Part shown: positions 35,582 to 47,805 of the stretch, one piece after another
Layout of the letters: each line of letters opens with the position of its first letter
How positions within the stretch are numbered: the first letter of the stretch is position 1
Origin: an uncultured Deferribacteres bacterium
Lineage (GTDB): Bacteria > Zhuqueibacterota > Zhuqueibacteria > Zhuqueibacterales > Geothermadaptataceae
Assembly (NCBI GenBank): GCA_964014485.1
Contig: CAXHAT010000009.1
Span: forward strand, 1 to 64,000
Direction: 5' to 3'
Length of the DNA: 64,000 nucleotides
Made by a program: the position numbers and the translations under genes
The notes under the pieces: generated by a model
What the model was told of the DNA's origin: nothing
Databases searched by the model: none
The model's input: the letters and a program-made list of their open reading frames with translations, nothing else

Positions 35582-35625
35582 CAATAAACCCGCTTTCATA
35601 GAGAACAGAGTTGGAAGGAGAAAAA

Positions 35626-36282
35626 ATGATAAAAAGGCATTTTCAGATCGCGCTGTGCGGCGTCTTATTGCTCGCATCAGTTTTACAGGCTCAAAACGAG
35701 AATGACAACATGCGCAAACAACGACAACCTGCGGATTCTCCCGAAGAAATTCGCCCGCTCCTCGTGGGACAAATCATTCCTGATCTTGAAGTTAAAAACC
35801 TCGAAAACCAGGCTGTGGCGCTCAGAAAAGCCATCGCGGAGAAACCGACGATTCTGATTTTTTATCGCGGCGGCTGGTGCCCCTATTGCAATCGTCATCT
35901 GGGACAAGTTGCTGAAGTTGAGGAAGAACTTTTGAAAATGGGGTATCAAATCATTGCGCTCAGCCCCGACCGCCCGGAAAAGTTGGCCAAGACCGTTGAC
36001 AAAAACAGCCTGAGCTACCAACTGCTTTCAGACAGCAAAATGACCGTTTCAACGGCCTTTGGGCTCAGCTTTAAAATGCCGGACAAAGCCGTTGCGCGCT
36101 ACAAAAAAATAGGCATCGATCTCGAAGCGTCTTCAGGCGAAGACCATCATTTATTGCCTGTTCCCGCCGCGTTTGTCCTCGGAACTGACGGCATGATTCA
36201 TTTTTCGTACGTCAACCCAAACTACAAAGTGCGCATTAACGGCGACGTATTGCTTGCCGCGGCGAAAGCGGCGTTGGAATAA
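35626..36282 (+). CDS. Peroxiredoxin-like AhpC/TSA family protein, exported
   Basis: FYRGGWCPYC, LPVPAAFV, signal peptide, AGGAG RBS. Confidence 0.9.
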   Translation: MIKRHFQIALCGVLLLASVLQAQNENDNMRKQRQPADSPEEIRPLLVGQIIPDLEVKNLENQAVALRKAIAEKPTILIFYRGGWCPYCNRHLGQVAEVEEELLKMGYQIIALSPDRPEKLAKTVDKNSLSYQLLSDSKMTVSTAFGLSFKMPDKAVARYKKIGIDLEASSGEDHHLLPVPAAFVLGTDGMIHFSYVNPNYKVRINGDVLLAAAKAALE

Positions 36283-36971
36283 TGCCCGGCGCCAGCCAGC
36301 CAGTCTATTCGCAGCAAACGGAAGTGCATGAAAAGCTGGCGGCCATTGTCCAGCGCCACATTAGGCACGATTTTCAAAAGGTCATCGCCCGCCATACATT
36401 GGCTGCTTTTGAAGAGGTCGCCAAAATCGTCGCGAATCAAAATTTGCCCCTGATTTTGGACTCAGGGTGCGGTACGGGTTTAAGCACTTTTCAAATTGCA
36501 AAATCACACCCGGATCATTTTGTCCTGGGCATTGACAAGTCCGGCCACAGATTAGCAAAAACTCCCGACGACGACCGCGAACCTGCCAATTGTTCTTTTG
36601 TCCGCGCAGACCTGATCGATTTTTGGCGACTGGCCGTGCGTGCAAATTGGCGAGTCGCGAAACACTTCCTGCTTTATCCAAATCCCTGGCCGAAAAAAAA
36701 CCACCTTCAACGCAGATTTCACGCTCATCCCGTCTTTCCGGATTTAGTCCGCCTCGGGGAAAAATTTATTCTGCGCAGCAATTGGAATATCTATTTACAA
36801 GAATTTTCAGCGGCGTTTGAGTTGGCGACCAGCTTCAAATCTCAAGTGCGCCAAATTCAGGTTCAAACGCCAATGACGCTTTTTGAAAAAAAATACCACG
36901 ACAGCGGCCACGCGATTTATGAGCTCTTGATTGAGAAAGATGGATCGCTGGAGAAGTTCGGGCTTGCCTGA
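36282..36971 (+). CDS. TrmB-like SAM-dependent methyltransferase
   Basis: LDSGCGTG, GIDKS, LYPNPWPKK.H.QRR, TLFEKKY. Confidence 0.82.
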   Translation: MPGASQPVYSQQTEVHEKLAAIVQRHIRHDFQKVIARHTLAAFEEVAKIVANQNLPLILDSGCGTGLSTFQIAKSHPDHFVLGIDKSGHRLAKTPDDDREPANCSFVRADLIDFWRLAVRANWRVAKHFLLYPNPWPKKNHLQRRFHAHPVFPDLVRLGEKFILRSNWNIYLQEFSAAFELATSFKSQVRQIQVQTPMTLFEKKYHDSGHAIYELLIEKDGSLEKFGLA

Positions 36972-37089
36972 CGCTGCAAAATCCAACCGGCGCCATTTGT
37001 TATTTCCAACTTTGAATCCGTCGTCGCTTTGTTAGTTTTTCGTGATAGTTTTGTGCTTATTCAAGCGTTTACAAAAGAAATCACGATAA

Positions 37090-37230
37090 GTGCGTGTTTG
37101 GAAAGTCTCAAATTGTCATGCTGGAAGCATCTTTTTTATCCTTTTCCGCAAAAGTTGTGGGAACGTTCATACCTGGCGACTTAAAAAGATTCCTACGGAA
37201 TGACAAAACAGGGGCTTTCCAAATACGCTC
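37090..37230. mobile_element. MITE-like element with IS5-like ends, TAA TSD and a family-Z core
   Basis: TAA|GTGCGTGTTTGGAAAG...CTTTCCAAATACGCTC|TAA; core TGTCATGCTGGAAGCATCTTTTT...AAAAAGATTCCTACGGAATGACA. Confidence 0.75.
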
Positions 37231-37259
37231 TAATTTTTAAAACTGGAAAAACTTGAACA

Positions 37260-37505
37260 ATGGCGGATTTTTTTGCTTATGCTTTTTTGGTTTATTTAGG
37301 AATCGGCTTTCTCTTTTCGCTGGCTTTTGTCTTCGCGGGGGCCGGGAAAATCGATCCCGACGCCCAAAAGGGAACAATCGGCTTTCGGCTGCTCATTATT
37401 CCGGGATCAATGGCCCTCTGGCCGGTTTTAGCCAAGCGCTGGTTCTCCGGCCAAAACGTCCCGCCAGTAGAAAAAAACGCACACGACAAAGCGGCAATCA
37501 ATTAA
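37260..37505 (+). CDS. Small membrane protein
   Basis: Two hydrophobic segments, IDPDA..GT.GFRLLIIPG...WP; first gene of a four-gene run. Confidence 0.75.
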   Translation: MADFFAYAFLVYLGIGFLFSLAFVFAGAGKIDPDAQKGTIGFRLLIIPGSMALWPVLAKRWFSGQNVPPVEKNAHDKAAIN

Positions 37506-37520
37506 TTCAAAGGATAAAGC

Positions 37521-38015
37521 GTGGTTCACAACCTCAGAAATCGCCACAGAATGACGTTTATTGTTTTGGCGATCGTTATTCCGGCAGGCTTCGTTGCCTC
37601 AATCGCCGGGCGCAAACCTATTCCCACGGACGACAGGGTTTCACAAATCACTCAGCCCGAGACGACACAGCCATCGCAATTTATCTTCAGCGAAGATGAT
37701 TTGTGGCAAAATCATCCAATTCAAACAAAAGCGTTTTTCACGGACTCCGTTCTGACGCTTGAATTGACGCCGCAAACGTATCTTGCGTATCCCGATCTTC
37801 TGGTTTATTGGCACAGCGGCGCAACGAATTCGGAAGCGTTGCCGCAAAATGCTTACTTACTCGGCGCGCAGAACAACAACGCCGCCAGCCTGTTCACACT
37901 GCCTGCCAACGCCGCAGGCTCGCCGGGAACGCTCGTTCTTTACAGCCTGGCGCAACAACAAGTGATCGACCAAGCCGCGCTGGCGCTCAAACTGAATTCC
38001 GAAGGAGGGTTTTAA
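37521..38015 (+). CDS. Hypothetical membrane-anchored protein
   Basis: N-terminal TM, PDLLVYW, YLLG, LYSLA; stop abuts the next ATG. Confidence 0.7.
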   Translation: MVHNLRNRHRMTFIVLAIVIPAGFVASIAGRKPIPTDDRVSQITQPETTQPSQFIFSEDDLWQNHPIQTKAFFTDSVLTLELTPQTYLAYPDLLVYWHSGATNSEALPQNAYLLGAQNNNAASLFTLPANAAGSPGTLVLYSLAQQQVIDQAALALKLNSEGGF

Positions 38016-39059
38016 ATGGCGCATTCTTATCAAGCCGTCACCTGGACGCGCCAGAAGCGGATTTATGATCTTTCACTGCTTTCGGGTGTGGTTCTTTTTA
38101 TGGCCGTTTTCTTTGTCGTCGGTCTCATTTTTCACCCGGCGATCACGGCTGAAACGCTGATGATTCGCAGCATGGCGGGGGCGTCGTTCGCGCTTCTGCA
38201 CGTCATTCTTTCCATCGGCCCGCTCTGCCGCTTGAATGACCGATTTTTGCCCTTGCTCTATAACCGCCGACATTTGGGCGTGACCATGTTCATTCTCGCT
38301 TTCGGCCATGGCTTTTTATCGATTTTTCAGTTCCACGCGTTGGGAAATGTTAATCCGTTGGTGAGCTTGTTTACCAGCAACGGCGCTTACGGCAGTTTGA
38401 GCGCCTTCCCTTTTCAACCGCTCGGTTTTTTTGCGCTGATCATTTTGTTTTTAATGGCTGCGACGAGTCATGATTTCTGGCTCGTCAACCTCACGCCGCT
38501 GGTCTGGAAGGCGTTGCACATGCTGGTTTACATTGCGTACGGCCTGATCGTCTTGCACGTCGCGTTCGGCGTTTTGCAGTCCGAAACCAGCCCGGTTTAC
38601 ACGATTCTGGTTGGCGCGGGATTTTTGTGGATAGTCGGCTTGCATCTCGTCGCCGGGTTTAAGGAAAAGCCCAAAGATCAAAAACAGGCGCTGTCGCAAA
38701 CTTCCGAATTCGTCGAAGTTTGCAGCGTGGACGAAATTCCCGAAAAGCGGGCTTTTATTGCAACGCTCTCCGGCGAACGCGTTGCGGTTTTCAAGTACGA
38801 CGGCAAAATTTCGGCGGTCTCCAACGTCTGCCGTCACCAGAACGGCCCTTTAGGCGAAGGCCAAATCATTGACGGCCTGATTACCTGTCCCTGGCACGGC
38901 TACCAGTACAAGCCTGACTGCGGCAAGTCGCCGGAACCGTTTACCGAACAAGTCACGACGTTTAACGTCAAAATTCAGAATGGGCGCGTATTGGTTGATC
39001 CAAAGCCGAATCCTGCTGGGACGCAGGTGGAACCGGCAAAAGTGACTGATAAAATGTAG
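38016..39059 (+). CDS. Ferric-reductase-like (MsrQ-type) heme TM domain fused to a Rieske [2Fe-2S] domain
   Basis: YNRRHLGV, WKALHMLVY, LHV histidines; C-terminal CRHQNG...CPWHG. Confidence 0.9.
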   Translation: MAHSYQAVTWTRQKRIYDLSLLSGVVLFMAVFFVVGLIFHPAITAETLMIRSMAGASFALLHVILSIGPLCRLNDRFLPLLYNRRHLGVTMFILAFGHGFLSIFQFHALGNVNPLVSLFTSNGAYGSLSAFPFQPLGFFALIILFLMAATSHDFWLVNLTPLVWKALHMLVYIAYGLIVLHVAFGVLQSETSPVYTILVGAGFLWIVGLHLVAGFKEKPKDQKQALSQTSEFVEVCSVDEIPEKRAFIATLSGERVAVFKYDGKISAVSNVCRHQNGPLGEGQIIDGLITCPWHGYQYKPDCGKSPEPFTEQVTTFNVKIQNGRVLVDPKPNPAGTQVEPAKVTDKM

Positions 39060-39082
39060 CGACGCGATGCATCGCGTCTCTA
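39057..39082. repeat. Stand-alone GTAG-type REP hairpin
   Basis: GTAGCGACGCGATGCATCGCGTCTCTAC overlapping the TAG stop. Confidence 0.65.
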
Positions 39083-39102
39083 CCAAGATGGAGATATTTT
39101 AA

Positions 39103-39873
39103 TTGAATTCAAAAAACGAAGAACTCTACGTCGGCTACATTGACAAAGCGCCTGTTGGAATCGGTCGATTTATTAAGAAATTCACGCTTCTGTTGATCGT
39201 TGCTGCGCCGATTCTCTCTTTTATTCTCGTTTTTGCGCAAAACCAATTTTACCCCGTCGTTTTTGAATTTTTGAATTATCGCACTTTCGAAGGAACGGTC
39301 ATAGAAAAACCGTTTCCGATGCTGTTGGTTCAGCGTCCAGGCGAAAACGGCAATGCAACTGACGCCTCGCAATATTTCCTGGTCGCCGAAGGCAAGATTG
39401 GAGCGCAGGAAATGACCGCCGGACTTTCGGGCAAAAGAGTCTCGCTCGAAGGCGCGCTGATTTACCGCGATAATCAGACGATAATCGAAGTCAAGCCCAA
39501 CACGTTGAAGGAAGTTTCGAGCGCTGGCGCCGCGTCCAGCACCGGCGAATCGATGCAGTTGGGAACCGTGACGCTGGTTGGCGAAATTGTTGACAGCAAA
39601 TGTTTTTTCGGCGTGATGAATCCCGGCAATTTGAAAGTCCATCGATCTTGCGCCGTGCGCTGCATCAGCGGCGGCATACCTCCGGTTTTCGCGGTAAAAT
39701 CAACGCAAGGCGAAACGCATTATTTTTTGCTGACCGGAACGCAGGGCGAGGCAATCAACGACAAAATTCTCGACCGCATCGCCGAACCGCTTGAAATTAG
39801 CGGCGAACTTGTCTCGAACGGCGATAAGTTTGTATTCAAAGCCGCGCCAGAAAACTACCGTCGATTGGACTAA
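39103..39873 (+). CDS. Hypothetical membrane-anchored protein with Cys cluster
   Basis: N-terminal TM; GEIVDSKCFFGVMNPG..KVHRSCAVRCISGGIPP; TTG start with GGAG RBS. Confidence 0.8.
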   Translation: MNSKNEELYVGYIDKAPVGIGRFIKKFTLLLIVAAPILSFILVFAQNQFYPVVFEFLNYRTFEGTVIEKPFPMLLVQRPGENGNATDASQYFLVAEGKIGAQEMTAGLSGKRVSLEGALIYRDNQTIIEVKPNTLKEVSSAGAASSTGESMQLGTVTLVGEIVDSKCFFGVMNPGNLKVHRSCAVRCISGGIPPVFAVKSTQGETHYFLLTGTQGEAINDKILDRIAEPLEISGELVSNGDKFVFKAAPENYRRLD

Positions 39874-39921
39874 TCGCCCAAAAATGTTACGAGCGCGGTC
39901 TCGTCCCACATTCCCAAAACC

Positions 39922-40812
39922 ATGTCTGACGCGAAAACAGAAAAAATTTCCTTGCGCAACATCTTCGCTCGATTTCGCGCAAAGATTATTCTAACTTGGT
40001 TTTTGGTCATTTGTGAAGCCGGGCTTTTATTGCTGTTTCCGCTATTCATCGGAATCGCCATCGATGATTTTTTGGCGGATTCCTATCTTGGCTTGGTGCA
40101 GTTGGCTGGAATCGGCTTGCTTTCGCTCATCGTCGGCGCAGGGCGCAGATTCTATGACACGCGCGCCTACGCCAACATCTACACGACCATCGCGCCGGAG
40201 TTGGTTGAAAAAGAGAAAAAACGCGATGCATCGGTTTCCGTGGTTTCCGCCAGGGCTGGGCTGGCAACGGAATTTGTTGAGTTCTTTGAAAATTCTTTTC
40301 CGGAAATTATCAACAGCATCATCGCCCTCGGCGGCGCTTTGCTTATCATTCTGTTTCTCAATTTTAAAATTTTCATCGCTTGTTTGATCGTTACGGCGGT
40401 CATAGGTTTGATTTATTCGCTGACAAGCACCAAGACTTACCGTTTAAACAGGGGCTACAATGCGGAATTGGAAAAGCGCGTTAAAGTGTTGGAACAAGGC
40501 GATAAAAACGGCGTCGTCGGTCATTTCAAGAATGTGATGCGCTGGAACATCCGTCTTTCCGATTTGGAAACAACAAATTTTTCTTTGAGCTGGGTCTTTC
40601 TGATCGGCGTTTTGCTGTACGCTATTGTCGCGATTATCGAAAGCGGCGTGACGGCACACGGCAAAGTTTTTTCTATCTTAATGTATGTTTTTAATTATAT
40701 TGAGAGCGTTATTACTATGCCGCTCTTCTATCAACAGTTTGTCCGGCTAAAGGAAATTTCGCATCGTCTGGAAGGCTTGGATGAGCGGCAAACACCTCAA
40801 CAAGACATTTAA
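39922..40812 (+). CDS. Stand-alone ABC six-transmembrane domain protein
   Basis: LLFPLFIG.AID, RRFYDTR.Y, EFVEFFE, IRLSD.E; no nucleotide-binding domain. Confidence 0.78.
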   Translation: MSDAKTEKISLRNIFARFRAKIILTWFLVICEAGLLLLFPLFIGIAIDDFLADSYLGLVQLAGIGLLSLIVGAGRRFYDTRAYANIYTTIAPELVEKEKKRDASVSVVSARAGLATEFVEFFENSFPEIINSIIALGGALLIILFLNFKIFIACLIVTAVIGLIYSLTSTKTYRLNRGYNAELEKRVKVLEQGDKNGVVGHFKNVMRWNIRLSDLETTNFSLSWVFLIGVLLYAIVAIIESGVTAHGKVFSILMYVFNYIESVITMPLFYQQFVRLKEISHRLEGLDERQTPQQDI

Positions 40813-40842
40813 TCTGGCCTTCGAACAACAACCGGCATCACC

Positions 40843-41625
40843 ATGACAAAGCACGATTTTCCACAGATTGTTCAAGCCCCGGAAAACACGCTTGAAGAAA
40901 AAAAATACCTGGTTCGCTTCGCGCAGAACTCTGAGGATGTGGACGCAGTGCTCAGGTTACGCTTCGAGGTTTTCAATCTTGAACTTGGCGAAGGGTTGGA
41001 TGAATCCTTCGAAACGGAGCGCGATCAGGATCGCTTCGATTTTAGCTGTCATCACCTCATGGTGATTGAGCGCAAAACCGGAAACGTCATCGGCACTTAT
41101 CGGATGCAGACGCAAGAAATGGCGGCGACGGGGAACGGTTTTTATACTGCGACCGAGTATGATTTGACGCAAATGCCGGATGCAATTCTGAATGGCGTCG
41201 TCGAAGTTGGACGTGCATGCATCGCCAAGGCCCACCGCAACGGACGCGTGCTGTTTCTGCTATGGCGAGGTTTGGCGGCGTACATGTCCTTGTTTAAAAA
41301 ACAGTTTCTTTTTGGCTGCTGTTCTCTGACCAGTCAAGACCCGCATGAAGGCAAGCAAGTGATGGATTATTTGCAAAATCGCGGGCATGTACGAGATGAT
41401 TTCGCGGTTCCGGCGCTGCCCGGCTACGCTTGTTATGAAGAAAGTTTTATAAGCGAAAAGCAGATCAGAATTAAGATTCCAAAACTCTTCAAACTTTACC
41501 TGAACCTGGGGGCCAAAGTCTGCGGCCCTCCTGTCATTGACCGGCAGTTCAAAACAATCGATTATCTTGTCATCCTTGATATAAAAACAATGGACAATCG
41601 AACCCGGACGATGTATTTTGGGTAA
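40843..41625 (+). CDS. GNAT N-acyltransferase, OlsB-like
   Basis: LRFEVF..ELG, D.DRFD..CHHL, GTYR, VEVGRACI, LLWRGL, LFGCCS, PKLFKLY..LGAKVCG.P..D..F. Confidence 0.88.
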   Translation: MTKHDFPQIVQAPENTLEEKKYLVRFAQNSEDVDAVLRLRFEVFNLELGEGLDESFETERDQDRFDFSCHHLMVIERKTGNVIGTYRMQTQEMAATGNGFYTATEYDLTQMPDAILNGVVEVGRACIAKAHRNGRVLFLLWRGLAAYMSLFKKQFLFGCCSLTSQDPHEGKQVMDYLQNRGHVRDDFAVPALPGYACYEESFISEKQIRIKIPKLFKLYLNLGAKVCGPPVIDRQFKTIDYLVILDIKTMDNRTRTMYFG

Positions 41626-41859
41626 CTGATGTTACGCGTCTGCCAATAATCCATGCCGTAGCCTGGTTCTTGGCTGCGTCGAATAGTGCAATTGAGATTA
41701 AAGCTGTTTGACCCAAAAAACGTTTTTCAAGGTCATTCCTACAGAGGCAAAAATCCAGTGGTCATGCACCATTTTCTGGATTCCTGCCTCCGCAGAATGA
41801 CAGGTACAGCAAAGTTCTTAGTCAAATGCCATATCCTTGGCCAGCTGCGTAACATCAGT
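41625..41859. mobile_element. Element with family-W TIRs but a different GTCATTCC...GAATGAC core
   Basis: ACTGATGTTACGC / GCGTAACATCAGT perfect 13-bp IR; core at 41732-41801. Confidence 0.8.
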
Positions 41860-41899
41860 GGGTAACTTTAAAATCCTGTTTCAATAACCCGCGCACTTC

Positions 41900-42673
41900 A
41901 TGCGAACGCTTCGAGCCCTTTGGCGCATTCTTGCCTTTGTCGTTGTAAATCTCACACTCCTGCTCATTTTCCTGCTTGTGAAATTGTTCATTTTCAACAA
42001 TCCTGATCGCTATACGCGCTGGCGCAAATTCATGGTCAGAATTTGGGCGCAAAGCATCGCCTGGATTTTTAACGCCACTGTCGTTGTTGAAGGAAAACGG
42101 CCCAAAGCGCCTTATTTTCTCGTCTCAAATCATTTAAGTTACTTCGACATAATCGCCTATTATACGCAATTGCAGTGTATTTTCGTGGCCAGAGCGGATG
42201 TAAGAAACTGGCCTTTTTTTGGCGTGCTGACACGGTCCGTCAATACGCTCTTTATCGATCGCACGCTCAAGAAAGACGTGGTGCGCGTCAATAAACTGAT
42301 CGACGAGGCGATGGACAAATTTGGCGGCGTGATGTTTTTTCCGGAGGGAACAAGCACCAAAGGCGAAGAATTAGCTCCTTTCAAGGCGCCGCTGTTCGAA
42401 ATGGCGGCGAAGCGAGAAGCCCCCGTCTCTTGTGCATATTTACGGTACGACGGCAGTTCAAAAGATGCGCCGCCGCATCGCACAATCTGCTGGTGGGACG
42501 ACACGTCGTTTCCGCTTCACGTCTGGCGCTTACTCAAGACCACAAAAATCGTCGCGACCATTTCTTTTATACCTGGAACCATCAAATCGAACGACCGTAA
42601 AGTGCTGGCGCGCGAGACGTTCGAAAAAATTCAACAAAATTTTAAGCCGACATTCATCACGGAGTCTTCATGA
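41900..42673 (+). CDS. Lysophospholipid acyltransferase (PlsC/OlsA family)
   Basis: SNHLSYFD (HX4D), FIDR, FFPEGTS. Confidence 0.9.
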   Translation: MRTLRALWRILAFVVVNLTLLLIFLLVKLFIFNNPDRYTRWRKFMVRIWAQSIAWIFNATVVVEGKRPKAPYFLVSNHLSYFDIIAYYTQLQCIFVARADVRNWPFFGVLTRSVNTLFIDRTLKKDVVRVNKLIDEAMDKFGGVMFFPEGTSTKGEELAPFKAPLFEMAAKREAPVSCAYLRYDGSSKDAPPHRTICWWDDTSFPLHVWRLLKTTKIVATISFIPGTIKSNDRKVLARETFEKIQQNFKPTFITESS

Positions 42674-43200
42674 ACTGCGAAAAACTGATTCACGAAAATA
42701 TCGTCTTTTTGCAGCAAGGCGCCGACTTGCTGAATTCGATAGACGACCGCATTTACAACAAAACCGATTCAACTTGTTATGCCAGCGGAATCGGCAAGCA
42801 TATTCGGCACAATCTCGATCATTTCGACAATTTCCTCACGGGATTGCCGAAAAGCGCGATTGACTATGACGCGCGTTTGCGCGATAAAAACACGGAAAAC
42901 AGCCGGGGCGTCGCCGCTTCGAGAATAAAAAAAATCATCTCCCGCCTTGAAAAACTCACGGCCGCCGACCCAAGCCTAAAATTGCGCGTTGACATGAATC
43001 GAGAAGGCGACCGAATGAACTGGACTGAATCGACGCTGGCGCGCGAGCTGCAATTTCTCATCAGCCACACCGTTCATCACTACGCCATCATCGCAATGAT
43101 CCTCAAGATTCAAGGCGTCGATCTTCAGATTTCAGGATTCGGCGTAGCGCCATCAACGCTGAAATATGAGCGCGGCACACCCAGCGCCGAAGCTGCTTAA
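42670..43200 (+). CDS. DinB-family protein
   Basis: IGKHIRH, IDYDAR.R, RELQFLISHTVHHYA, FGVAPST; ATGA overlap with the upstream gene. Confidence 0.85.
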   Translation: MNCEKLIHENIVFLQQGADLLNSIDDRIYNKTDSTCYASGIGKHIRHNLDHFDNFLTGLPKSAIDYDARLRDKNTENSRGVAASRIKKIISRLEKLTAADPSLKLRVDMNREGDRMNWTESTLARELQFLISHTVHHYAIIAMILKIQGVDLQISGFGVAPSTLKYERGTPSAEAA

Positions 43201-43215
43201 GGTCACTGATAGTTC

Positions 43216-45822
43216 ATGATCCCAAAAATCCTCCGGTTTGCACGGCGACATTGGTTTCTCACTGGCTATAGCCTTTTGTTATTGTTTTCACACGTTTACC
43301 GAACATTTCAGCAAGCGCCGGTTTCCTATCCCGCAGAAAAGAAAATCACGGAAGTGCGCGTCGTTGATCAGGGCAAGCGTTTGGAAAGAACGGCTTTTTT
43401 TGCCTGGCGCGAATATTCACCCGCCGCCGTTGACAGCCTACCAATTGTCATTTTGCTTCACGGCAGCCCGATGGGGTCGGAAACATTCGACAACCTCGGG
43501 CCGGAATTAGGGAAAAATTTTCGCACCTTTTCCCTCGACCTTCCCGGATTTGGCCACTCGACGCGCAACCTCCCCGACTACTCAATTTCCGCCCACGGCG
43601 ATTACGTTTTGCAATTTATGCAGCAAAACGACTTGCCCGCCGCACACATTGTCGGCTATAGCATGGGCGGCGGCGTAGCGCTTCATCTCGGCGAGTCAGC
43701 GCCGGATCGTGTACGTTCTCTCACCATGCTCTCCGCCATCGGCGTGCAAGAAATGGAGTTGCTTGGCAATTTCCACATGAACCGCAGCGTCCATGCCGCA
43801 CAATACGCCGCGCTCTGGCTCTTACTGGAAGTCACGCCGCATTTCGGGCTGTTTGATGGCAGCATGTTGAACCTGCAATATGCTCGAAACTTCTACGACA
43901 CCGATCAACGGCCATTGCGTCGGCTGCTCCAGAATTGGCAGGGCCCGATGCTTATCCAGCACGGCGAAACAGATCGTTTTGTATCATTCGCGGTTGCAAA
44001 GGAACACCATCGAATTGTGCCGCAGAGCGAATTAGCCGTCTACCAAATCGGACACAATCTGGCATTTTCAAGCCGCGGCTGGCCCCAAGTCGCGCGTGAT
44101 TTGGTTCAATTTATTCGAAAAGTTGAACAAGGCGAAGCGCAATCGCGAGCGACAGCCGATCCTGCTCGAATAAGCGCAGCGGCGGAACCGTTTGATCCGG
44201 CGGTCATCCCCCCGGCTCAAGGAATTACCTGGCTGGTCATCGTATTGCTCATTGCCGTCGCGACGCTTATCAGCGAAGACCTGGCCTGCATTGGCGCCGG
44301 CCTGCTTGTCACCCAGGGCGTGCTCAGCTTTTTCAGCGGGTCGGCGGCGGCCTTCATGGGCATTTTCTGGGGCGATCTCCTGCTTTATTGGGCGGGAAAA
44401 TATTTTGGCGGGCCAATGCTCAACAAGGCGCCACTAAAATGGATGGTCAAGAAAAGCGACATTGAAAAAAGCGCCCGCTGGTTTGAAATGCGCGGCCCGG
44501 CCATTATCATCGCCAGTCGCTTTTTGCCCGGGAGCCGCCTGCCGACCTATGTCGCCGCCGGAATTTTGCAAATGGGATTTTGGCAGTTCGCCTTTTATCT
44601 CTTTGTCGCTGGCGTCGTCTGGACGCCCATTCTCGTTTGGCTGGCCATGGCGCTGGGCCAGCAGCTTTTTGAACTCTTCGACGTCTACCAAAAATACGCC
44701 CTGCCGACGCTCATCGGCGTGATCATTCTCATCTATCTTGTTTTTAAACTTATCGTTCCGATGCTGACGCACAAGGGTCGCCGTTTGCTTCTCTCCAAGT
44801 GGCACAGAACAACGCGCTGGGAATTTTGGCCGCCCTGGATTTTCTACGTCCCCGTGGTTTTCTACATCATCTACTTGAGCATAAAACATCGCAGCCTCAC
44901 GCTTTTTACTGCTGCAAATCCAGGCATTCCGGAAAGCGGGTTTGTTGGAGAATCAAAATCCAAAATCCTGCGCAAACTCGAAAACGCCGGGGAATTCGTC
45001 GCACGTTTTTTCCTAATACCAAACAATTTGCATCCCAACGAACGCATCGAATACGCCGAACGATTTATGGGCGACCACAGCTACGATTTTCCCATCGTGC
45101 TCAAACCCGACTCGGGCGAACGCGGCGAAGGCGTGGCGGTTGTTCGTTCAAAATACGAGCTGTCGAAATATTTGAGAGCGATTGAGCAGGACACGATCAT
45201 TCAAGAATATGCACCCGGCGAAGAATTCGGCGTGTTTTATATTCGCCGCCCCGGCGAGGAAAAGGGGATGATTTTTTCAATTACCGACAAACGTTTTCCA
45301 ACTGTCGTCGGCGACGGGCGGACGGAACTGGAAAGGCTGATTATCGATCACAAGCGCGCCGTTTCAATGGCGAGTTTCTATTTGGAAAAGCACCGCGAAA
45401 ACTTGCACATGATTCTTCCCGAAGGCGAGCGATTGCAGTTGGTGGAGTTAGGCACACATTGCCGCGGCGCGCTCTTTTTGGACGGCGCACAGCTCATTAC
45501 GCCTGCGTTAGAAATCAAAATCGACAAAATAAGCCGGCAATTCGAAGGTTTCTATTTTGGACGTTACGACATCCGTACGCCCTCACTGGAAGATTTTAAA
45601 AATGGTCGGAATTTCAAAATCGTTGAATTGAACGGCGTGACCTCCGAAGCGACGAATATTTACGACCCCAAGAATTCTCTCACATCGGCGTATCGCACGC
45701 TCATGATGCAATGGAGAGCCGCGTTTGAAATTGGAGAACTCAACCGGCAAAACGGCCATCATCCAGCAACAATCTCTCGAATTGTCATACTGCTCAAGGC
45801 GCGCTTTTTCTCCGACGCTTGA
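43216..45822 (+). CDS. Three-domain fusion: alpha/beta hydrolase + DedA/VTT + ATP-grasp
   Basis: HGSP / GYSMGG / HGETD / GH; SEDLAC..GD...RFLPGSR; WEFWP, ANP, KPDSGERGEGV, QEY, GRYD, ELNG. Confidence 0.88.
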   Translation: MIPKILRFARRHWFLTGYSLLLLFSHVYRTFQQAPVSYPAEKKITEVRVVDQGKRLERTAFFAWREYSPAAVDSLPIVILLHGSPMGSETFDNLGPELGKNFRTFSLDLPGFGHSTRNLPDYSISAHGDYVLQFMQQNDLPAAHIVGYSMGGGVALHLGESAPDRVRSLTMLSAIGVQEMELLGNFHMNRSVHAAQYAALWLLLEVTPHFGLFDGSMLNLQYARNFYDTDQRPLRRLLQNWQGPMLIQHGETDRFVSFAVAKEHHRIVPQSELAVYQIGHNLAFSSRGWPQVARDLVQFIRKVEQGEAQSRATADPARISAAAEPFDPAVIPPAQGITWLVIVLLIAVATLISEDLACIGAGLLVTQGVLSFFSGSAAAFMGIFWGDLLLYWAGKYFGGPMLNKAPLKWMVKKSDIEKSARWFEMRGPAIIIASRFLPGSRLPTYVAAGILQMGFWQFAFYLFVAGVVWTPILVWLAMALGQQLFELFDVYQKYALPTLIGVIILIYLVFKLIVPMLTHKGRRLLLSKWHRTTRWEFWPPWIFYVPVVFYIIYLSIKHRSLTLFTAANPGIPESGFVGESKSKILRKLENAGEFVARFFLIPNNLHPNERIEYAERFMGDHSYDFPIVLKPDSGERGEGVAVVRSKYELSKYLRAIEQDTIIQEYAPGEEFGVFYIRRPGEEKGMIFSITDKRFPTVVGDGRTELERLIIDHKRAVSMASFYLEKHRENLHMILPEGERLQLVELGTHCRGALFLDGAQLITPALEIKIDKISRQFEGFYFGRYDIRTPSLEDFKNGRNFKIVELNGVTSEATNIYDPKNSLTSAYRTLMMQWRAAFEIGELNRQNGHHPATISRIVILLKARFFSDA

Positions 45823-46068
45823 TCTCAGCCTCATCAAACACAGGAAACACTTGTTTTTTAGCTATATTTTCCGCTTTTTCTCACGCCTTAATTCTCGCCG
45901 TTCTCTCGACGAGCAAATCGAATGCTGAATTCGTCCTTTCGGCCCAACCCCGCCCAAAGCACGCGACTTGAGCAACTTATTCAAATAAAAATTCAGGTAA
46001 AGTCAGAGCGCGAAACGCACAATCTTGCTCAAAGCGCTTTTTAGAAATTGATGCCTGAAGGAGTTTTT

Positions 46069-47805
46069 ATGTCCGAATCTTCTTCAACGCCCCTTGATTT
46101 TCAAGGATTTGACCTCCTGCCCCCAATCCTAAAAGCATTGGACGACGTTGGCTATGAAACGCCGTCGCCGATTCAAGCGCAGACCATCCCGATCATTTTA
46201 TCCGGCAAGGACGTGATCGGCCAGGCGCAAACCGGGACGGGAAAAACGGCGGCGTTTGCGCTGCCTTTGCTCTCGCGAATCCAGCTAAAGGAAAAACTGC
46301 CGCAGGTTTTGGTGCTCGCGCCAACGCGAGAATTGGCCATTCAGGTTGCGGAGGCGTTTCAACGCTATGCTGCACGACTAAAAAACTTTCATGTATTGCC
46401 GGTTTACGGCGGTCAAGATTACAGCCTGCAACTACGGCAATTAAAGCGAGGCGTTCATGTTGTCGTCGGCACGCCCGGGCGGGTTATGGACCACATTCGA
46501 CGGGGTTCGCTTGAGCTTGAAGGCCTCGATTGTCTCGTGCTCGATGAAGCCGATGAAATGCTACGCATGGGATTTCTGGACGATGTTGAGTGGATTCTCG
46601 AGCAAACGCCTCCGGAACGACAAATCGCGCTTTTTTCCGCAACGATGCCGCAAGCAATTCGGCGCATCGCGCAAAAACACCTGCAATCGCCGGAAGAAAT
46701 TACGATTGAAGCGCAAACGGCCACTGTTGAAACGACCCGGCAACGTTACCTGATCGTCAGCGGGCGGCACAAGCTGGACGCACTCACACGCTTACTCGAG
46801 TCCGAAATCTCTGACGGCATGATCGTTTTTGTGCGAACCAAAACCGCCACAATTGAACTCGCGGAAAAATTGCAGGCGCGCGGCTATAATTCCGCGGCGC
46901 TCAACGGAGACATTAAGCAGAGCCAGCGCGAACGCACGATCGGTCGTTTCAAAAAAGGCGATCTCGACATTTTGGTCGCGACGGATGTTGCAGCGCGCGG
47001 CCTGGACGTGGATCGTGTTAGTCATGTCATCAATTACGACGTGCCGTACGACACCGAATCATACGTGCATCGCATTGGCCGCACGGGCAGAGCAGGGCGC
47101 TCAGGCGAAGCAGTCTTGTTCATCGCGCCGCGCGAGCAACGGTTGCTCCGTTCCATTGAAAAGGCGACGAATCAGAAGATTGAGGTGATGCAGCGCCCGT
47201 CGACGAGCGCGATTAACGAAATGCGCGTGGCCAATTTTAAGCAGAAAATCACGGACACGCTGGCCAACGGCGATCTTGATTTTTTCCGACGCCTGGTGGA
47301 GCAGTACCAGCAGGAATATGACGTTCCCATGCAGGAAATCGCCGCCGGGCTTGCGCAACTGGTACAGGGCGACCAGCCATTGCTGCTATCCAATAAACCA
47401 GAGGCCGACACAAGTTTTCGCGAGGAATCGTCCAAAAAGGGACGTGCGGAATTCAAGCAAAGAGATTCGCTTTATCAGCCAGACCAAGGCATGGCGCGTT
47501 TTCGCGTTGACGTTGGGCATAAGAACAAGGTAAAGCCCGGCAATATTGTCGGCGCCGTCGCCAACGAAATCGGTTTAGACCCGGAATTTATTGGTCGAAT
47601 CAATATTTACAGCCATTTCAGCACGGTTGATTTGCCGGAAGATTTGCCTCGGAATCTGCTGCATATTTTGAAAAAGGCAAGGGTCGTTGGCAAACCGCTC
47701 AACATCGCGCGCATGGACGCCAATGACAAAAAAGCGCAGGAGAAAAAACGCAAGAAATTCAAGAAAAAGAGGAAAAAGCGTAAAGCAGCGGCGCCGCACA
47801 GTTAG
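46069..47805 (+). CDS. deaD: DEAD-box RNA helicase DeaD/CsdA
   Basis: Q motif, AQTGTGKT, PTRELA, DEAD, SAT, HRIGRTGR, DbpA-type RNA-binding C-domain. Confidence 0.93.
   Translation: MSESSSTPLDFQGFDLLPPILKALDDVGYETPSPIQAQTIPIILSGKDVIGQAQTGTGKTAAFALPLLSRIQLKEKLPQVLVLAPTRELAIQVAEAFQRYAARLKNFHVLPVYGGQDYSLQLRQLKRGVHVVVGTPGRVMDHIRRGSLELEGLDCLVLDEADEMLRMGFLDDVEWILEQTPPERQIALFSATMPQAIRRIAQKHLQSPEEITIEAQTATVETTRQRYLIVSGRHKLDALTRLLESEISDGMIVFVRTKTATIELAEKLQARGYNSAALNGDIKQSQRERTIGRFKKGDLDILVATDVAARGLDVDRVSHVINYDVPYDTESYVHRIGRTGRAGRSGEAVLFIAPREQRLLRSIEKATNQKIEVMQRPSTSAINEMRVANFKQKITDTLANGDLDFFRRLVEQYQQEYDVPMQEIAAGLAQLVQGDQPLLLSNKPEADTSFREESSKKGRAEFKQRDSLYQPDQGMARFRVDVGHKNKVKPGNIVGAVANEIGLDPEFIGRINIYSHFSTVDLPEDLPRNLLHILKKARVVGKPLNIARMDANDKKAQEKKRKKFKKKRKKRKAAAPHS

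Follow-up and report, generated by a model that had tools for sequence, protein, structure and literature searches.

Positions 40843-45822 of a 64,000-nucleotide stretch of DNA from an uncultured Deferribacteres bacterium of the Zhuqueibacterota (contig CAXHAT010000009.1, positions 1 to 64,000 of the forward strand; hereafter, the window) encode an OlsB-like acyltransferase, a PlsC-like acyltransferase, a DinB-superfamily protein and an 868-residue protein in which an alpha/beta-hydrolase, a DedA domain and an ATP-grasp domain are fused. Comparative sequence analysis leads us to propose, with moderate confidence, that these genes are a copy of a widespread aminolipid-tailoring module, in which a lipid head group would be extended at the expense of ATP inside the cell and the lipid then flipped and trimmed outside. 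The module is undescribed as a combination and is built from known enzyme families. In the first-pass annotation of this DNA no pathway with this set of genes was said to be known as characterized, and we likewise found none in the searchable literature, where neither the fusion nor the module is described, most subscription journals lying outside the scope of that search. The portions of two aminolipid reviews that were available (PMC11631085, PMC12971839) also do not contain the module. The genes, together with an inserted miniature inverted-repeat transposable element (MITE), are arranged as follows.

40843-41625, + strand: OlsB-like N-acyltransferase (GNAT, PF13444), 260 residues, assigned by Pfam
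41626-41859, no strand: MITE between the two acyltransferase genes, recognized by its terminal inverted repeats and genome copies
41900-42673, + strand: PlsC/OlsA-like O-acyltransferase, 257 residues, assigned by PF01553
42670-43200, + strand: DinB-superfamily metalloprotein, 176 residues, assigned by DinB_2
43216-45822, + strand: hydrolase-DedA-ATP-grasp fusion, 868 residues, assigned by Pfam and fold

The open reading frames (ORFs) and direct reading of the junctions agree with the initial description of four intact, co-oriented genes split by a MITE, a 4-bp overlap and a 15-bp gap. The stop codon of the PlsC-like gene overlaps the start codon of the DinB gene in the sequence ATGA (42670-42673), and the DinB gene ends in TAA (43198-43200), 15 bp ahead of the ATG of the fusion gene at 43216. 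The only long spacer (41626-41899, 274 bp) contains an element of about 234 bp whose terminal inverted repeats, each 18 nt long, are 89% complementary and which has an internal 20-nt palindrome at 41739-41795. The element matches 70 places in its own genome, and because about 30 of the matches, on other contigs, are near full length (74-87% identity) it represents a real MITE family; several copies sit at contig ends. Both promoter-like sites (12 in 37000-46200 compared with 6.9 ± 2.8 in shuffled sequences) and terminator-like sites (17 compared with 15.4 ± 4.7 in the same region) are too weak a signal to delimit transcription units.

The composition ascribed to the 868-residue protein, i.e. 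a hydrolase, a DedA domain and an ATP-grasp domain with their named motifs, is borne out by Pfam, by predicted fold and by an alignment of 40 family members, to which the conservation figures given below for the fusion refer. The full-length AlphaFold2 (AF2) model has a predicted local distance difference test (pLDDT) value of 90.3, and the parts of the protein are assigned as follows.

43216-43308, + strand: residues 1-31, positively charged N terminus and hydrophobic helix, signal-anchor-like (charge; AF2 helix 2-31)
43333-44145, + strand: residues 40-310, alpha/beta-hydrolase of the esterase/lipase type with Ser149-Asp253-His280 (PF00561)
44221-44763, + strand: residues 336-516, DedA/VTT membrane domain (PF09335)
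44818-44886, + strand: residues 535-557, WEFWPPW aromatic/proline membrane helix (conservation)
44893-45819, + strand: residues 560-868, predicted ATP-grasp carboxylate-amine ligase domain (AF2, Foldseek and profile)

The C-terminal part is confirmed as a member of the ATP-grasp superfamily by its modeled fold and by the conserved Lys for ATP and Glu/Asn for Mg. The AF2 model of the C-terminal 344 residues has a pLDDT value of 91.9, and its Foldseek matches, with a probability of 1.00, include the ATP-grasp half of the glutathione synthetase GshAB (3ln6, E = 1.9e-12) and the cyanophycin synthetases CphA1 (7wae), CphA2 (7ta5) and 7lg5, with E values up to 1e-11. D-Ala-D-Ala ligases (Ddl) follow from rank 13 on, with the D-alanyl-D-lactate ligase 1e4e in 21st place. 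A profile built from 32 ATP-grasp domain sequences gave a consistent picture when compared with the Protein Data Bank (CphA2 7ta5, E = 6.2e-8; CphA1, 1.4e-7). Residues K630, E670, R783, D785, E804 and N806 are invariant, E804 and N806 being those of the ELNG motif. At the level of sequence models the Pfam ATP-grasp families remain below their cut-offs in the fusion (RimK, 16.7-18.5 bits against 21; also ATP-grasp_3 and ATP-grasp_4), and the cyanophycin synthetase model TIGR02068 is not reached (25.8 bits against 850, over residues 622-711 only), with Pfam revealing no Mur-ligase domain.

Thus the fold and the ATP/Mg residues K630, E804 and N806 are shared with CphA1, CphA2, GshAB and Ddl, whereas sequence identity to these enzymes is only 14-21%, and the domain differs from them in its WEFWPPW membrane tether and its fusion to DedA. 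Soluble ATP-grasp relatives carry a full N-terminal domain ahead of the ATP-binding strand, whereas in our model that strand is preceded by one short strand. The WEFWPPW segment (535-541) is invariant, with W535, E536, F537, W538, Y544 and P546 the same in all 40 sequences, and the WEFW helix is also found at the N terminus of ATP-grasp forms that stand alone, e.g. in the locus L035.

The hydrolase part of the fusion scores 89.7 bits against Abhydrolase_1 (PF00561; cut-off 25.8; residues 76-177), and each member of its triad, S149 (in GYSMGG), D253 and H280, is at least 90% conserved. Its Foldseek matches comprise esterases, the polyhydroxybutyrate depolymerase PhaZ, ABHD6 (7ots) and a membrane phospholipase A of Pseudomonas aeruginosa (6i8w). 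ABHD6 and 6i8w likewise have one N-terminal helix followed by a Ser-Asp-His alpha/beta-hydrolase (Foldseek E values about 1e-10), but at 18-21% identity they are two of hundreds of esterases with a generically similar fold, and a substrate cannot be deduced from them. The DedA part scores 63.3 bits against VTT/DedA (PF09335; cut-off 33.9; residues 361-475) and has an acidic SED motif at its start and a GD motif in its first membrane segments. Both motifs, along with PF09335, are shared with the DedA/VTT proteins UptA, PopT and YqjA, but the domain reaches none of the curated equivalog cut-offs, not even that of the best-matching NCBIfam model, UptA (NF052604; 81.2 bits against 250).

A further difference from the DedA/VTT family is that in this subfamily the stretch leading up to the first DedA helix seems to be extracytoplasmic. 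In the hydropathy and charge profile of the fusion, K+R averages 4.5 across the family in residues 1-12, before the hydrophobic helix; the loops at 395-425 (K+R 7.1) and 517-536 (6.6) are rich in K and R, whereas the loop at 482-496 is poor in them. We compared 56 two-domain relatives that start with Met with 57 three-domain representatives. Among the former, 36 of 56 start within 30 residues of the first DedA helix, and where this short N-terminal tail has 8 residues or more (15 cases) it is acidic (mean K+R 0.47 against D+E 2.1); the other 20 have an N-terminal extension, which begins like a signal peptide in 17 and contains a lipobox-like motif in four. A signal-anchor-like segment opens 45 of the 57 three-domain forms, with mean K+R of 3.7 against D+E of 0.8 ahead of it. 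The acidic tails and the signal-peptide-like extensions of the two-domain relatives imply that the DedA part starts outside the cytoplasm, and we regard a periplasmic location of the hydrolase as probable. The ATP-grasp domain, since it needs ATP, would be cytoplasmic, and the WEFW helix is probably monotopic because positive residues flank it on both sides. The arrangement foreseen from the window, i.e. hydrolase outside and ATP-grasp inside, therefore fits both the positive-inside pattern and the signal-peptide- or lipobox-like N termini of relatives. DedA proteins are generally pictured with a cytoplasmic N terminus, which would place the hydrolase inside; we have set this arrangement aside in view of the signal-peptide-like and acidic N termini of the two-domain relatives, and it remains a caveat.

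The OlsB-like protein scores 104.5 bits against PF13444 (gathering score 22.4), covering profile positions 1-102 of 102, and the PlsC-like protein 65.9 bits against PF01553 (gathering score 23). The latter has the motifs H78-LSYF-D83 (H-x4-D) and, at residue 148, PEGT; HX4D and PEGT are motifs of PlsC-type acyltransferases. Adjoining PF13444 and PF01553 genes, with HX4D and PEGT, are likewise a property of the OlsB/OlsA pair of the Sinorhizobium type and of its GluB/OlsA and GlsB/GlsA relatives, and the best NCBIfam matches of the window pair are the OlsB and OlsA models. However, neither protein reaches an equivalog: the OlsB-like protein scores 156 bits against 320 for NF052555 and 151.6 against 350 for NF052554, and the PlsC-like protein 110.7 (NF052553) and 106.4 bits (NF052552) against 300, so that the scores of the pair are half or less of the curated cut-offs. 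In addition, the known OlsB/OlsA pathways, insofar as they are covered by the available portions of PMC12971839 and PMC11631085, are without the DinB protein, the three-domain membrane protein and the redox trio (described below) found here.

The DinB superfamily is characterized by conserved metal-binding histidines and includes thiol transferases. The window protein is a marginal member by score (DinB_2, PF12867, 25.7 bits against a cut-off of 24.8) and has no further Pfam domain; across 21 cluster homologues there is no variation at R46, H47, R69, R71, E76, E126, H133, H136 or H137, and the conservation of H44 is 90% or more. A complex prediction for the ATP-grasp domain with the DinB protein returned a score of 0.00 and was not used. 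Thiohistidine-dipeptide clusters, which pair an ATP-grasp enzyme with DinB-containing sulfoxide synthases (PMC13674229), were considered as a match and rejected. The ATP-grasp enzymes of those clusters are described as RimK-like and were tested in solution, and the available portion of that report is silent on membranes and lipids. The DinB protein here has 176 residues and no further Pfam domain.

The fusion belongs to a large family. A word-based search listed at least 119 other full-length homologues at 50-58% identity; where a name is given it is just 'alpha/beta fold hydrolase', in KSB1, Blastocatellia and Acidobacteriota metagenome-assembled genomes (MAGs). An exhaustive search with the ATP-grasp domain profile returned 4944 representatives at E ≤ 1e-3, of which 1702 were at E ≤ 1e-30. 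We examined the architecture of the best 150 of the 4944 with hidden Markov models built from the 40-member alignment: 64 are hydrolase-DedA-ATP-grasp proteins, 61 are DedA-ATP-grasp, 20 (some of them fragments) are ATP-grasp alone and five are hydrolase-ATP-grasp. What stays constant across the family is thus the ATP-grasp domain together with its WEFW helix, in most cases joined to DedA, with the hydrolase being frequent but optional. Carriers were seen in the Acidobacteriota, Gemmatimonadota, Planctomycetota, Verrucomicrobiota and Acidimicrobiia, in one Turneriella and in KSB1-named MAGs.

Conservation of the neighborhood was studied by tblastn, using the window proteins and the TANGO2-like protein of the locus L021 as queries, in 28 public loci and in nine longer stretches taken from genomes related to that of the window. 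A locus was counted as informative when 3 kb or more of sequence was present ahead of the fusion gene on its upstream side (22 public, seven from relatives); the public loci are not all independent because L013 and L015 are near-duplicates. The OlsB-like and the PlsC-like genes are each present in 16 of the 22 public loci and two of the seven from relatives, the DinB gene in 19 and one, a TANGO2-like gene in 13 and two, and a heme-Rieske protein together with the protein u256 (see below) in four and two, respectively. The DinB gene is the most constant neighbor, those 19 public loci having it directly upstream of the ATP-grasp gene. In one more public locus, L032, the fusion lies 4.6 kb from a bifunctional synthase of the OlsF type (PF19576 + PF13444), which raises the linkage with a synthase to 17 of the 22.

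The OlsB-like homologues that adjoin the fusion in other phyla are 42-63% identical to the window protein. The gene order is OlsB-PlsC-DinB-(TANGO2-like)-fusion in the Acidobacteriota, Gemmatimonadota and Acidimicrobiia, and PlsC-DinB-TANGO2-like-fusion-OlsB in the Planctomycetota. Where acyltransferases do not adjoin the fusion, related genes may be encoded elsewhere: three relatives (G025, G015, G011) have an OlsB-like gene in another part of the genome, two of them (G025, G011) with a DinB gene too, and the Turneriella (L027) and Verrucomicrobiota (L034) genomes encode PF13444 proteins away from the locus.

Several accessory genes recur. A DoxX-like protein of about 135 residues lies beside the module in nine of 29 sequence sets (51-72% identity across phyla; e.g. 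L011:9817-10230, L040:7531-7944, L027:6914-7315 and six more loci), the match in the window genome being weak (24.6 bits). A YHS-domain protein is found in five of the 29, and some loci include genes for extracytoplasmic function (ECF) sigma or zf-HC2 anti-sigma factors. In other genomes the TANGO2-like proteins that belong to the module begin with MCT, retain the NRDE motif and score weakly (26-34 bits) as TANGO2. A TANGO2-like gene of this type (PF05742) is absent beside the window fusion, and with the L021 query none was found in its genome, which is 97% complete. A canonical TANGO2/NRDE gene (249.6 bits) is located on another contig of the window genome (G000:C234:9027-9755).

The proposal of a four-gene unit holds with respect to the genes themselves, but not with respect to its extent, because a trio of genes immediately upstream (37521-39873) also belongs to it and the TANGO2-like gene of other genomes is missing here. 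The upstream region is organized as follows.

37521-38015, + strand: u164, small membrane protein, first of the trio, no Pfam or NCBIfam match (position conserved)
38016-39059, + strand: ferric-reductase-like heme transmembrane domain and Rieske [2Fe-2S] domain (PF01794, 43.6 bits; PF00355, 60.4 bits)
39103-39873, + strand: u256, N-terminally anchored, with the motif GEIVDxKC...GVMNPG..K.H..CAVRC (alignment)
39922-40812, + strand: orphan ABC_membrane_3 protein with no ATPase domain (PF13748, 173 bits)

In L019, L021, L026, L028, L042 and L044 the trio keeps its order and immediately precedes either the OlsB-like gene or the fusion; the heme-Rieske homologues directly upstream of the module in these six loci are 58-65% identical, and u164 homologues hold the same position in L026, L028, L042 and L044. 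In two of the loci the heme-Rieske protein and u256 are a single ORF (L021, 2905-5025, 706 residues, in a Gemmatimonas MAG; L019, 3504-5654, 716 residues, in an Acidobacteriota MAG), which argues that both work together. The Cys/His motif of u256 is invariant in the alignment; u256 has no Pfam match, and the Atlas returned only clusters named hypothetical or DUF5666. In the relatives with an OlsB-like gene, a match to u256 lies no more than about 0.5 kb upstream of that gene. From this conserved arrangement, the heme-Rieske protein and u256 are predicted to belong to the module in the lineage of the window. The ABC_membrane_3 gene gave no tblastn counterpart in the 37 other loci examined, and this gene and the MITE are inserts particular to the window, not parts of the conserved module. 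Farther upstream (35611-36971) lie genes for a peroxiredoxin (AhpC/TSA) and a TrmB-like methyltransferase, which share base 36282 and are separated from the module by 549 bp; neither is kept beside the module elsewhere.

Phyletic co-occurrence was examined in 41 genomes of relatives, including that of the window (G000) and two unpublished genomes (G016, G023). The fusion is present in 14 of these (G000, G010, G011, G014, G015, G016, G018, G019, G020, G021 (partial), G023, G024, G025 and G027). An OlsB-like gene (E ≤ 1e-20) is present in 11, ten of which also have the fusion, the exception being G012; the DinB gene is present in eight, all of which have both the fusion and the OlsB-like gene; and u256 is present in 14, of which 13 have the fusion. 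With the two unpublished genomes left out (n = 39) the numbers are 12 for the fusion, 10 for the OlsB-like gene, eight for DinB and 12 for u256. The fusion is present without a close OlsB-like gene in G019 and G010; in both genomes OlsB-like matches of 30% identity lie inside ORFs of 627-645 residues, which is an OlsF-type size (G019:C26:18422-18889, G010:C4:115235-115699). None of the fusion, OlsB-like, DinB or u256 genes was found in the nine relatives of the window's own family (G001-G009), which could reflect either transfer into the window lineage or loss in the relatives. Many genomes of the sister family (G010-G028) carry these module genes. The window genome is 8.4 Mb, compared with 4.0-5.9 Mb in the relatives of its own family.

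The same question was asked of two more distant classes, each sampled with 61 genomes, at E ≤ 1e-30 for the ATP-grasp profile and E ≤ 1e-15, a threshold of our own choosing, for PF13444. In the class of the Gemmatimonas record L021, the two occur in the same six genomes, always on one contig and within 4.4 kb, and the other 55 genomes have neither. In the class of the Planctomycetota record L020, ATP-grasp was found in 22 genomes and PF13444 in 25; all 22 have PF13444, 19 of them within 7 kb, three genomes have PF13444 only and 36 have neither. The expected association of the fusion with acyltransferases is thus seen across phyla, both by linkage (17 of 22 public loci) and by genome content (28 of 28 ATP-grasp genomes in the two classes).

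On the basis of these observations, the following scheme can be put forward for the module. The OlsB-like enzyme would N-acylate an amino acid and the PlsC/OlsA-like enzyme would add a second, ester-linked fatty acid to give an acyloxyacyl aminolipid, as suggested by their family membership. The ATP-grasp domain, held by the WEFWPPW helix at the cytoplasmic face, may then form a head-group amide with ATP, a role to which its fold, its residues and its linkage point. In the reactions of the CphA G domains and GshAB, a peptide or amino acid is phosphorylated on its C-terminal carboxylate and then coupled to a free amino acid. Because these nearest structural relatives act in this way on peptide C termini, we favor extension at the alpha-carboxylate: most likely the domain transfers phosphate to the alpha-carboxylate left free on the lipid-bound amino acid and couples it to an amine, which may be that of a second amino acid, taurine or a polyamine. 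The fusion itself suggests that the DedA domain moves the lipid between the leaflets, and the topology and triad are consistent with the periplasmic Ser-Asp-His hydrolase removing or transferring a part of the flipped lipid and so setting its level. The DinB protein would be a metal-dependent partner in the pathway, and in the lineage of the window the transmembrane heme-Rieske protein and the anchored u256 may also act in the unit. In its overall logic, with a synthase, a flippase and a hydrolase on the outside, the scheme would resemble MprF and its partner hydrolases, although the folds are unrelated.

There are precedents for parts of this scheme. In the case of OlsH/OlsI, an alpha/beta-hydrolase can serve as the O-acyltransferase of an aminolipid pathway (PMC12493201, in its available portion), and by this precedent the hydrolase domain of the fusion could be a transferase. 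As to the amide, the available portion of a 2026 review (Moyano-Palazuelo et al., PMC12971839) states that ATP is required for the transfer of taurine to the carboxyl group of ornithine lipid and that neither the enzyme nor the gene is known. The resulting cerilipin of Gluconobacter cerinus (compare the serine-glycine head group of flavolipin) contains an amide whose ATP-dependent formation from a carboxylate is the chemistry expected of an Ols-linked ATP-grasp enzyme. The cerilipin literature names no gene within the same searchable scope.

Several points weigh against the proposed aminolipid-tailoring scheme, or limit its reach. The OlsB-like and PlsC-like scores lie far below the ornithine-lipid cut-offs and thus do not fix the base lipid, and the similarity in fold does not tell which partner of the ATP-grasp reaction supplies the carboxylate. 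Substrates of DedA proteins are known for few members, and the best model for the domain, that of an undecaprenyl-phosphate transporter, is far from being reached; the internal topology of the domain is, moreover, derived solely from charge and hydropathy. The fusion is without adjoining acyltransferases in five of the 22 public and five of the seven relatives' informative loci. Conversely, G012, a 100% complete genome, has the OlsB-like gene and u256 side by side (C21:31393-33222), and neither the fusion nor DinB was found in it; this genome is a natural control for the product of the acyltransferases alone. Since the hydrolase and the TANGO2-like gene are each dispensable in many members, the full three-step scheme cannot be universal, and since genomes of kin are not independent, the phyletic counts carry no statistical claim.

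Of the alternatives, the one that fares best reverses the sense of the ligation. In this mechanism, which we consider unlikely, a free amino acid is activated at its carboxylate by the ATP-grasp domain and passed on to a nucleophilic group of a membrane lipid, for instance the amine in the side chain of an ornithine or lysine lipid, that of phosphatidylethanolamine or a hydroxyl of phosphatidylglycerol, and DedA then flips the product, from which the hydrolase removes the residue outside. Enzymes of the Ddl/VanA group activate a free amino-acid carboxylate and can form esters, and they are represented among the fold matches by the D-Ala-D-Ala ligases from rank 13 and by 1e4e; the linkage to aminolipid genes also fits equally well if the lipid is the nucleophile. 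The synthase-flippase-hydrolase layout, moreover, mirrors that of MprF, an aminoacyl-phosphatidylglycerol synthase fused to a flippase, with its partner hydrolases such as AcvB/PA0919. By analogy the two would share the logic of a head-group synthase fused to a lipid translocator and served by a hydrolase outside. The parts differ, however, in that MprF uses an aminoacyl-tRNA-dependent transferase and its own flippase, the folds of which are unrelated to those of ATP-grasp and DedA, and in that the hydrolase here is part of the same polypeptide. No MprF domain was found among the six Pfam families in the 868-residue protein (E ≤ 0.01), and the top sequence and fold matches of the ATP-grasp domain are the cyanophycin synthetase G domains and GshAB, which are carboxylate extenders.

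It is also conceivable, although in our view improbable, that the module serves to break down or recycle aminolipids when the envelope is under stress, with its hydrolases, including the TANGO2-like protein of other genomes, cleaving ester or amide bonds, while the ATP-grasp domain may religate or detoxify a lyso-lipid or N-acyl amino acid and DedA return it to the inner leaflet. Consistent with this, two types of hydrolase accompany the module (the Ser-Asp-His enzyme and the TANGO2-like protein with its MCT start and NRDE motif), ECF sigma and zf-HC2 anti-sigma genes are found in some loci, and the hydrolase resembles the membrane-lipid lipases ABHD6 and 6i8w. The window, however, is without the TANGO2-like gene, and in the Gemmatimonas class PF13444 genes are found only in the module (six of six, compared with none in the 55 other genomes), which fits a biosynthetic unit better than an added salvage system.

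The redox-flavored accessory genes, i.e. DinB and heme-Rieske/u256 here and the DoxX, YHS and ZAS genes of other genomes, lead us to leave open another reading, to which we give similarly low credence, namely that the module makes and maintains a membrane lipid with redox activity, which would be an equivalent of glutathione or mycothiol anchored in the membrane. The nearest folds of the ATP-grasp domain include a glutathione synthetase, and this domain would ligate a thiol-bearing or oxidizable residue to the aminolipid carboxylate and DedA expose it outside, the heme-Rieske protein and the cysteine-rich u256 would keep the lipid reduced, the hydrolases would remove damaged head groups, and DinB, along with the DoxX, YHS and ZAS/ECF gene products of other genomes, would act on or with the lipid. 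Finally, a polyprenyl-phosphate or peptidoglycan-precursor substrate, with DedA as a C55-P-type transporter, the ATP-grasp domain acting like Ddl or a D-aspartate ligase on the stem peptide, and the adjacency to aminolipid genes reflecting shared envelope regulation only, would accord with UptA as the best DedA model, with Ddl among the fold neighbors and with the fusion standing alone in several loci, but is very improbable given the low UptA score, the lack of cell-wall genes among the recurrent neighbors of the module, and the occurrence of the ATP-grasp protein, in both classes, only in genomes with PF13444 and usually within 7 kb of it.

Aminolipids replace phospholipids in many environmental bacteria. 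The available portion of the 2026 review describes five modifications of ornithine lipid (PMC12971839). The module considered here, found in about one-third of the sampled genomes of one planctomycete class, and in many Acidobacteriota and KSB1-named MAGs, suggests that phyla with little-studied membranes have a head-group chemistry yet to be described, and it offers a concrete gene candidate for a decades-old gap, the type of enzyme behind the cerilipin-type, ATP-dependent amidation of an aminolipid carboxylate. We know of no ATP-grasp ligase that acts on a membrane lipid, and the fusion, if the aminolipid-tailoring proposal is true, would be the first. It would also define a lipid cargo for a DedA domain and would provide a bacterial context for the TANGO2-like proteins that accompany the module in other genomes.

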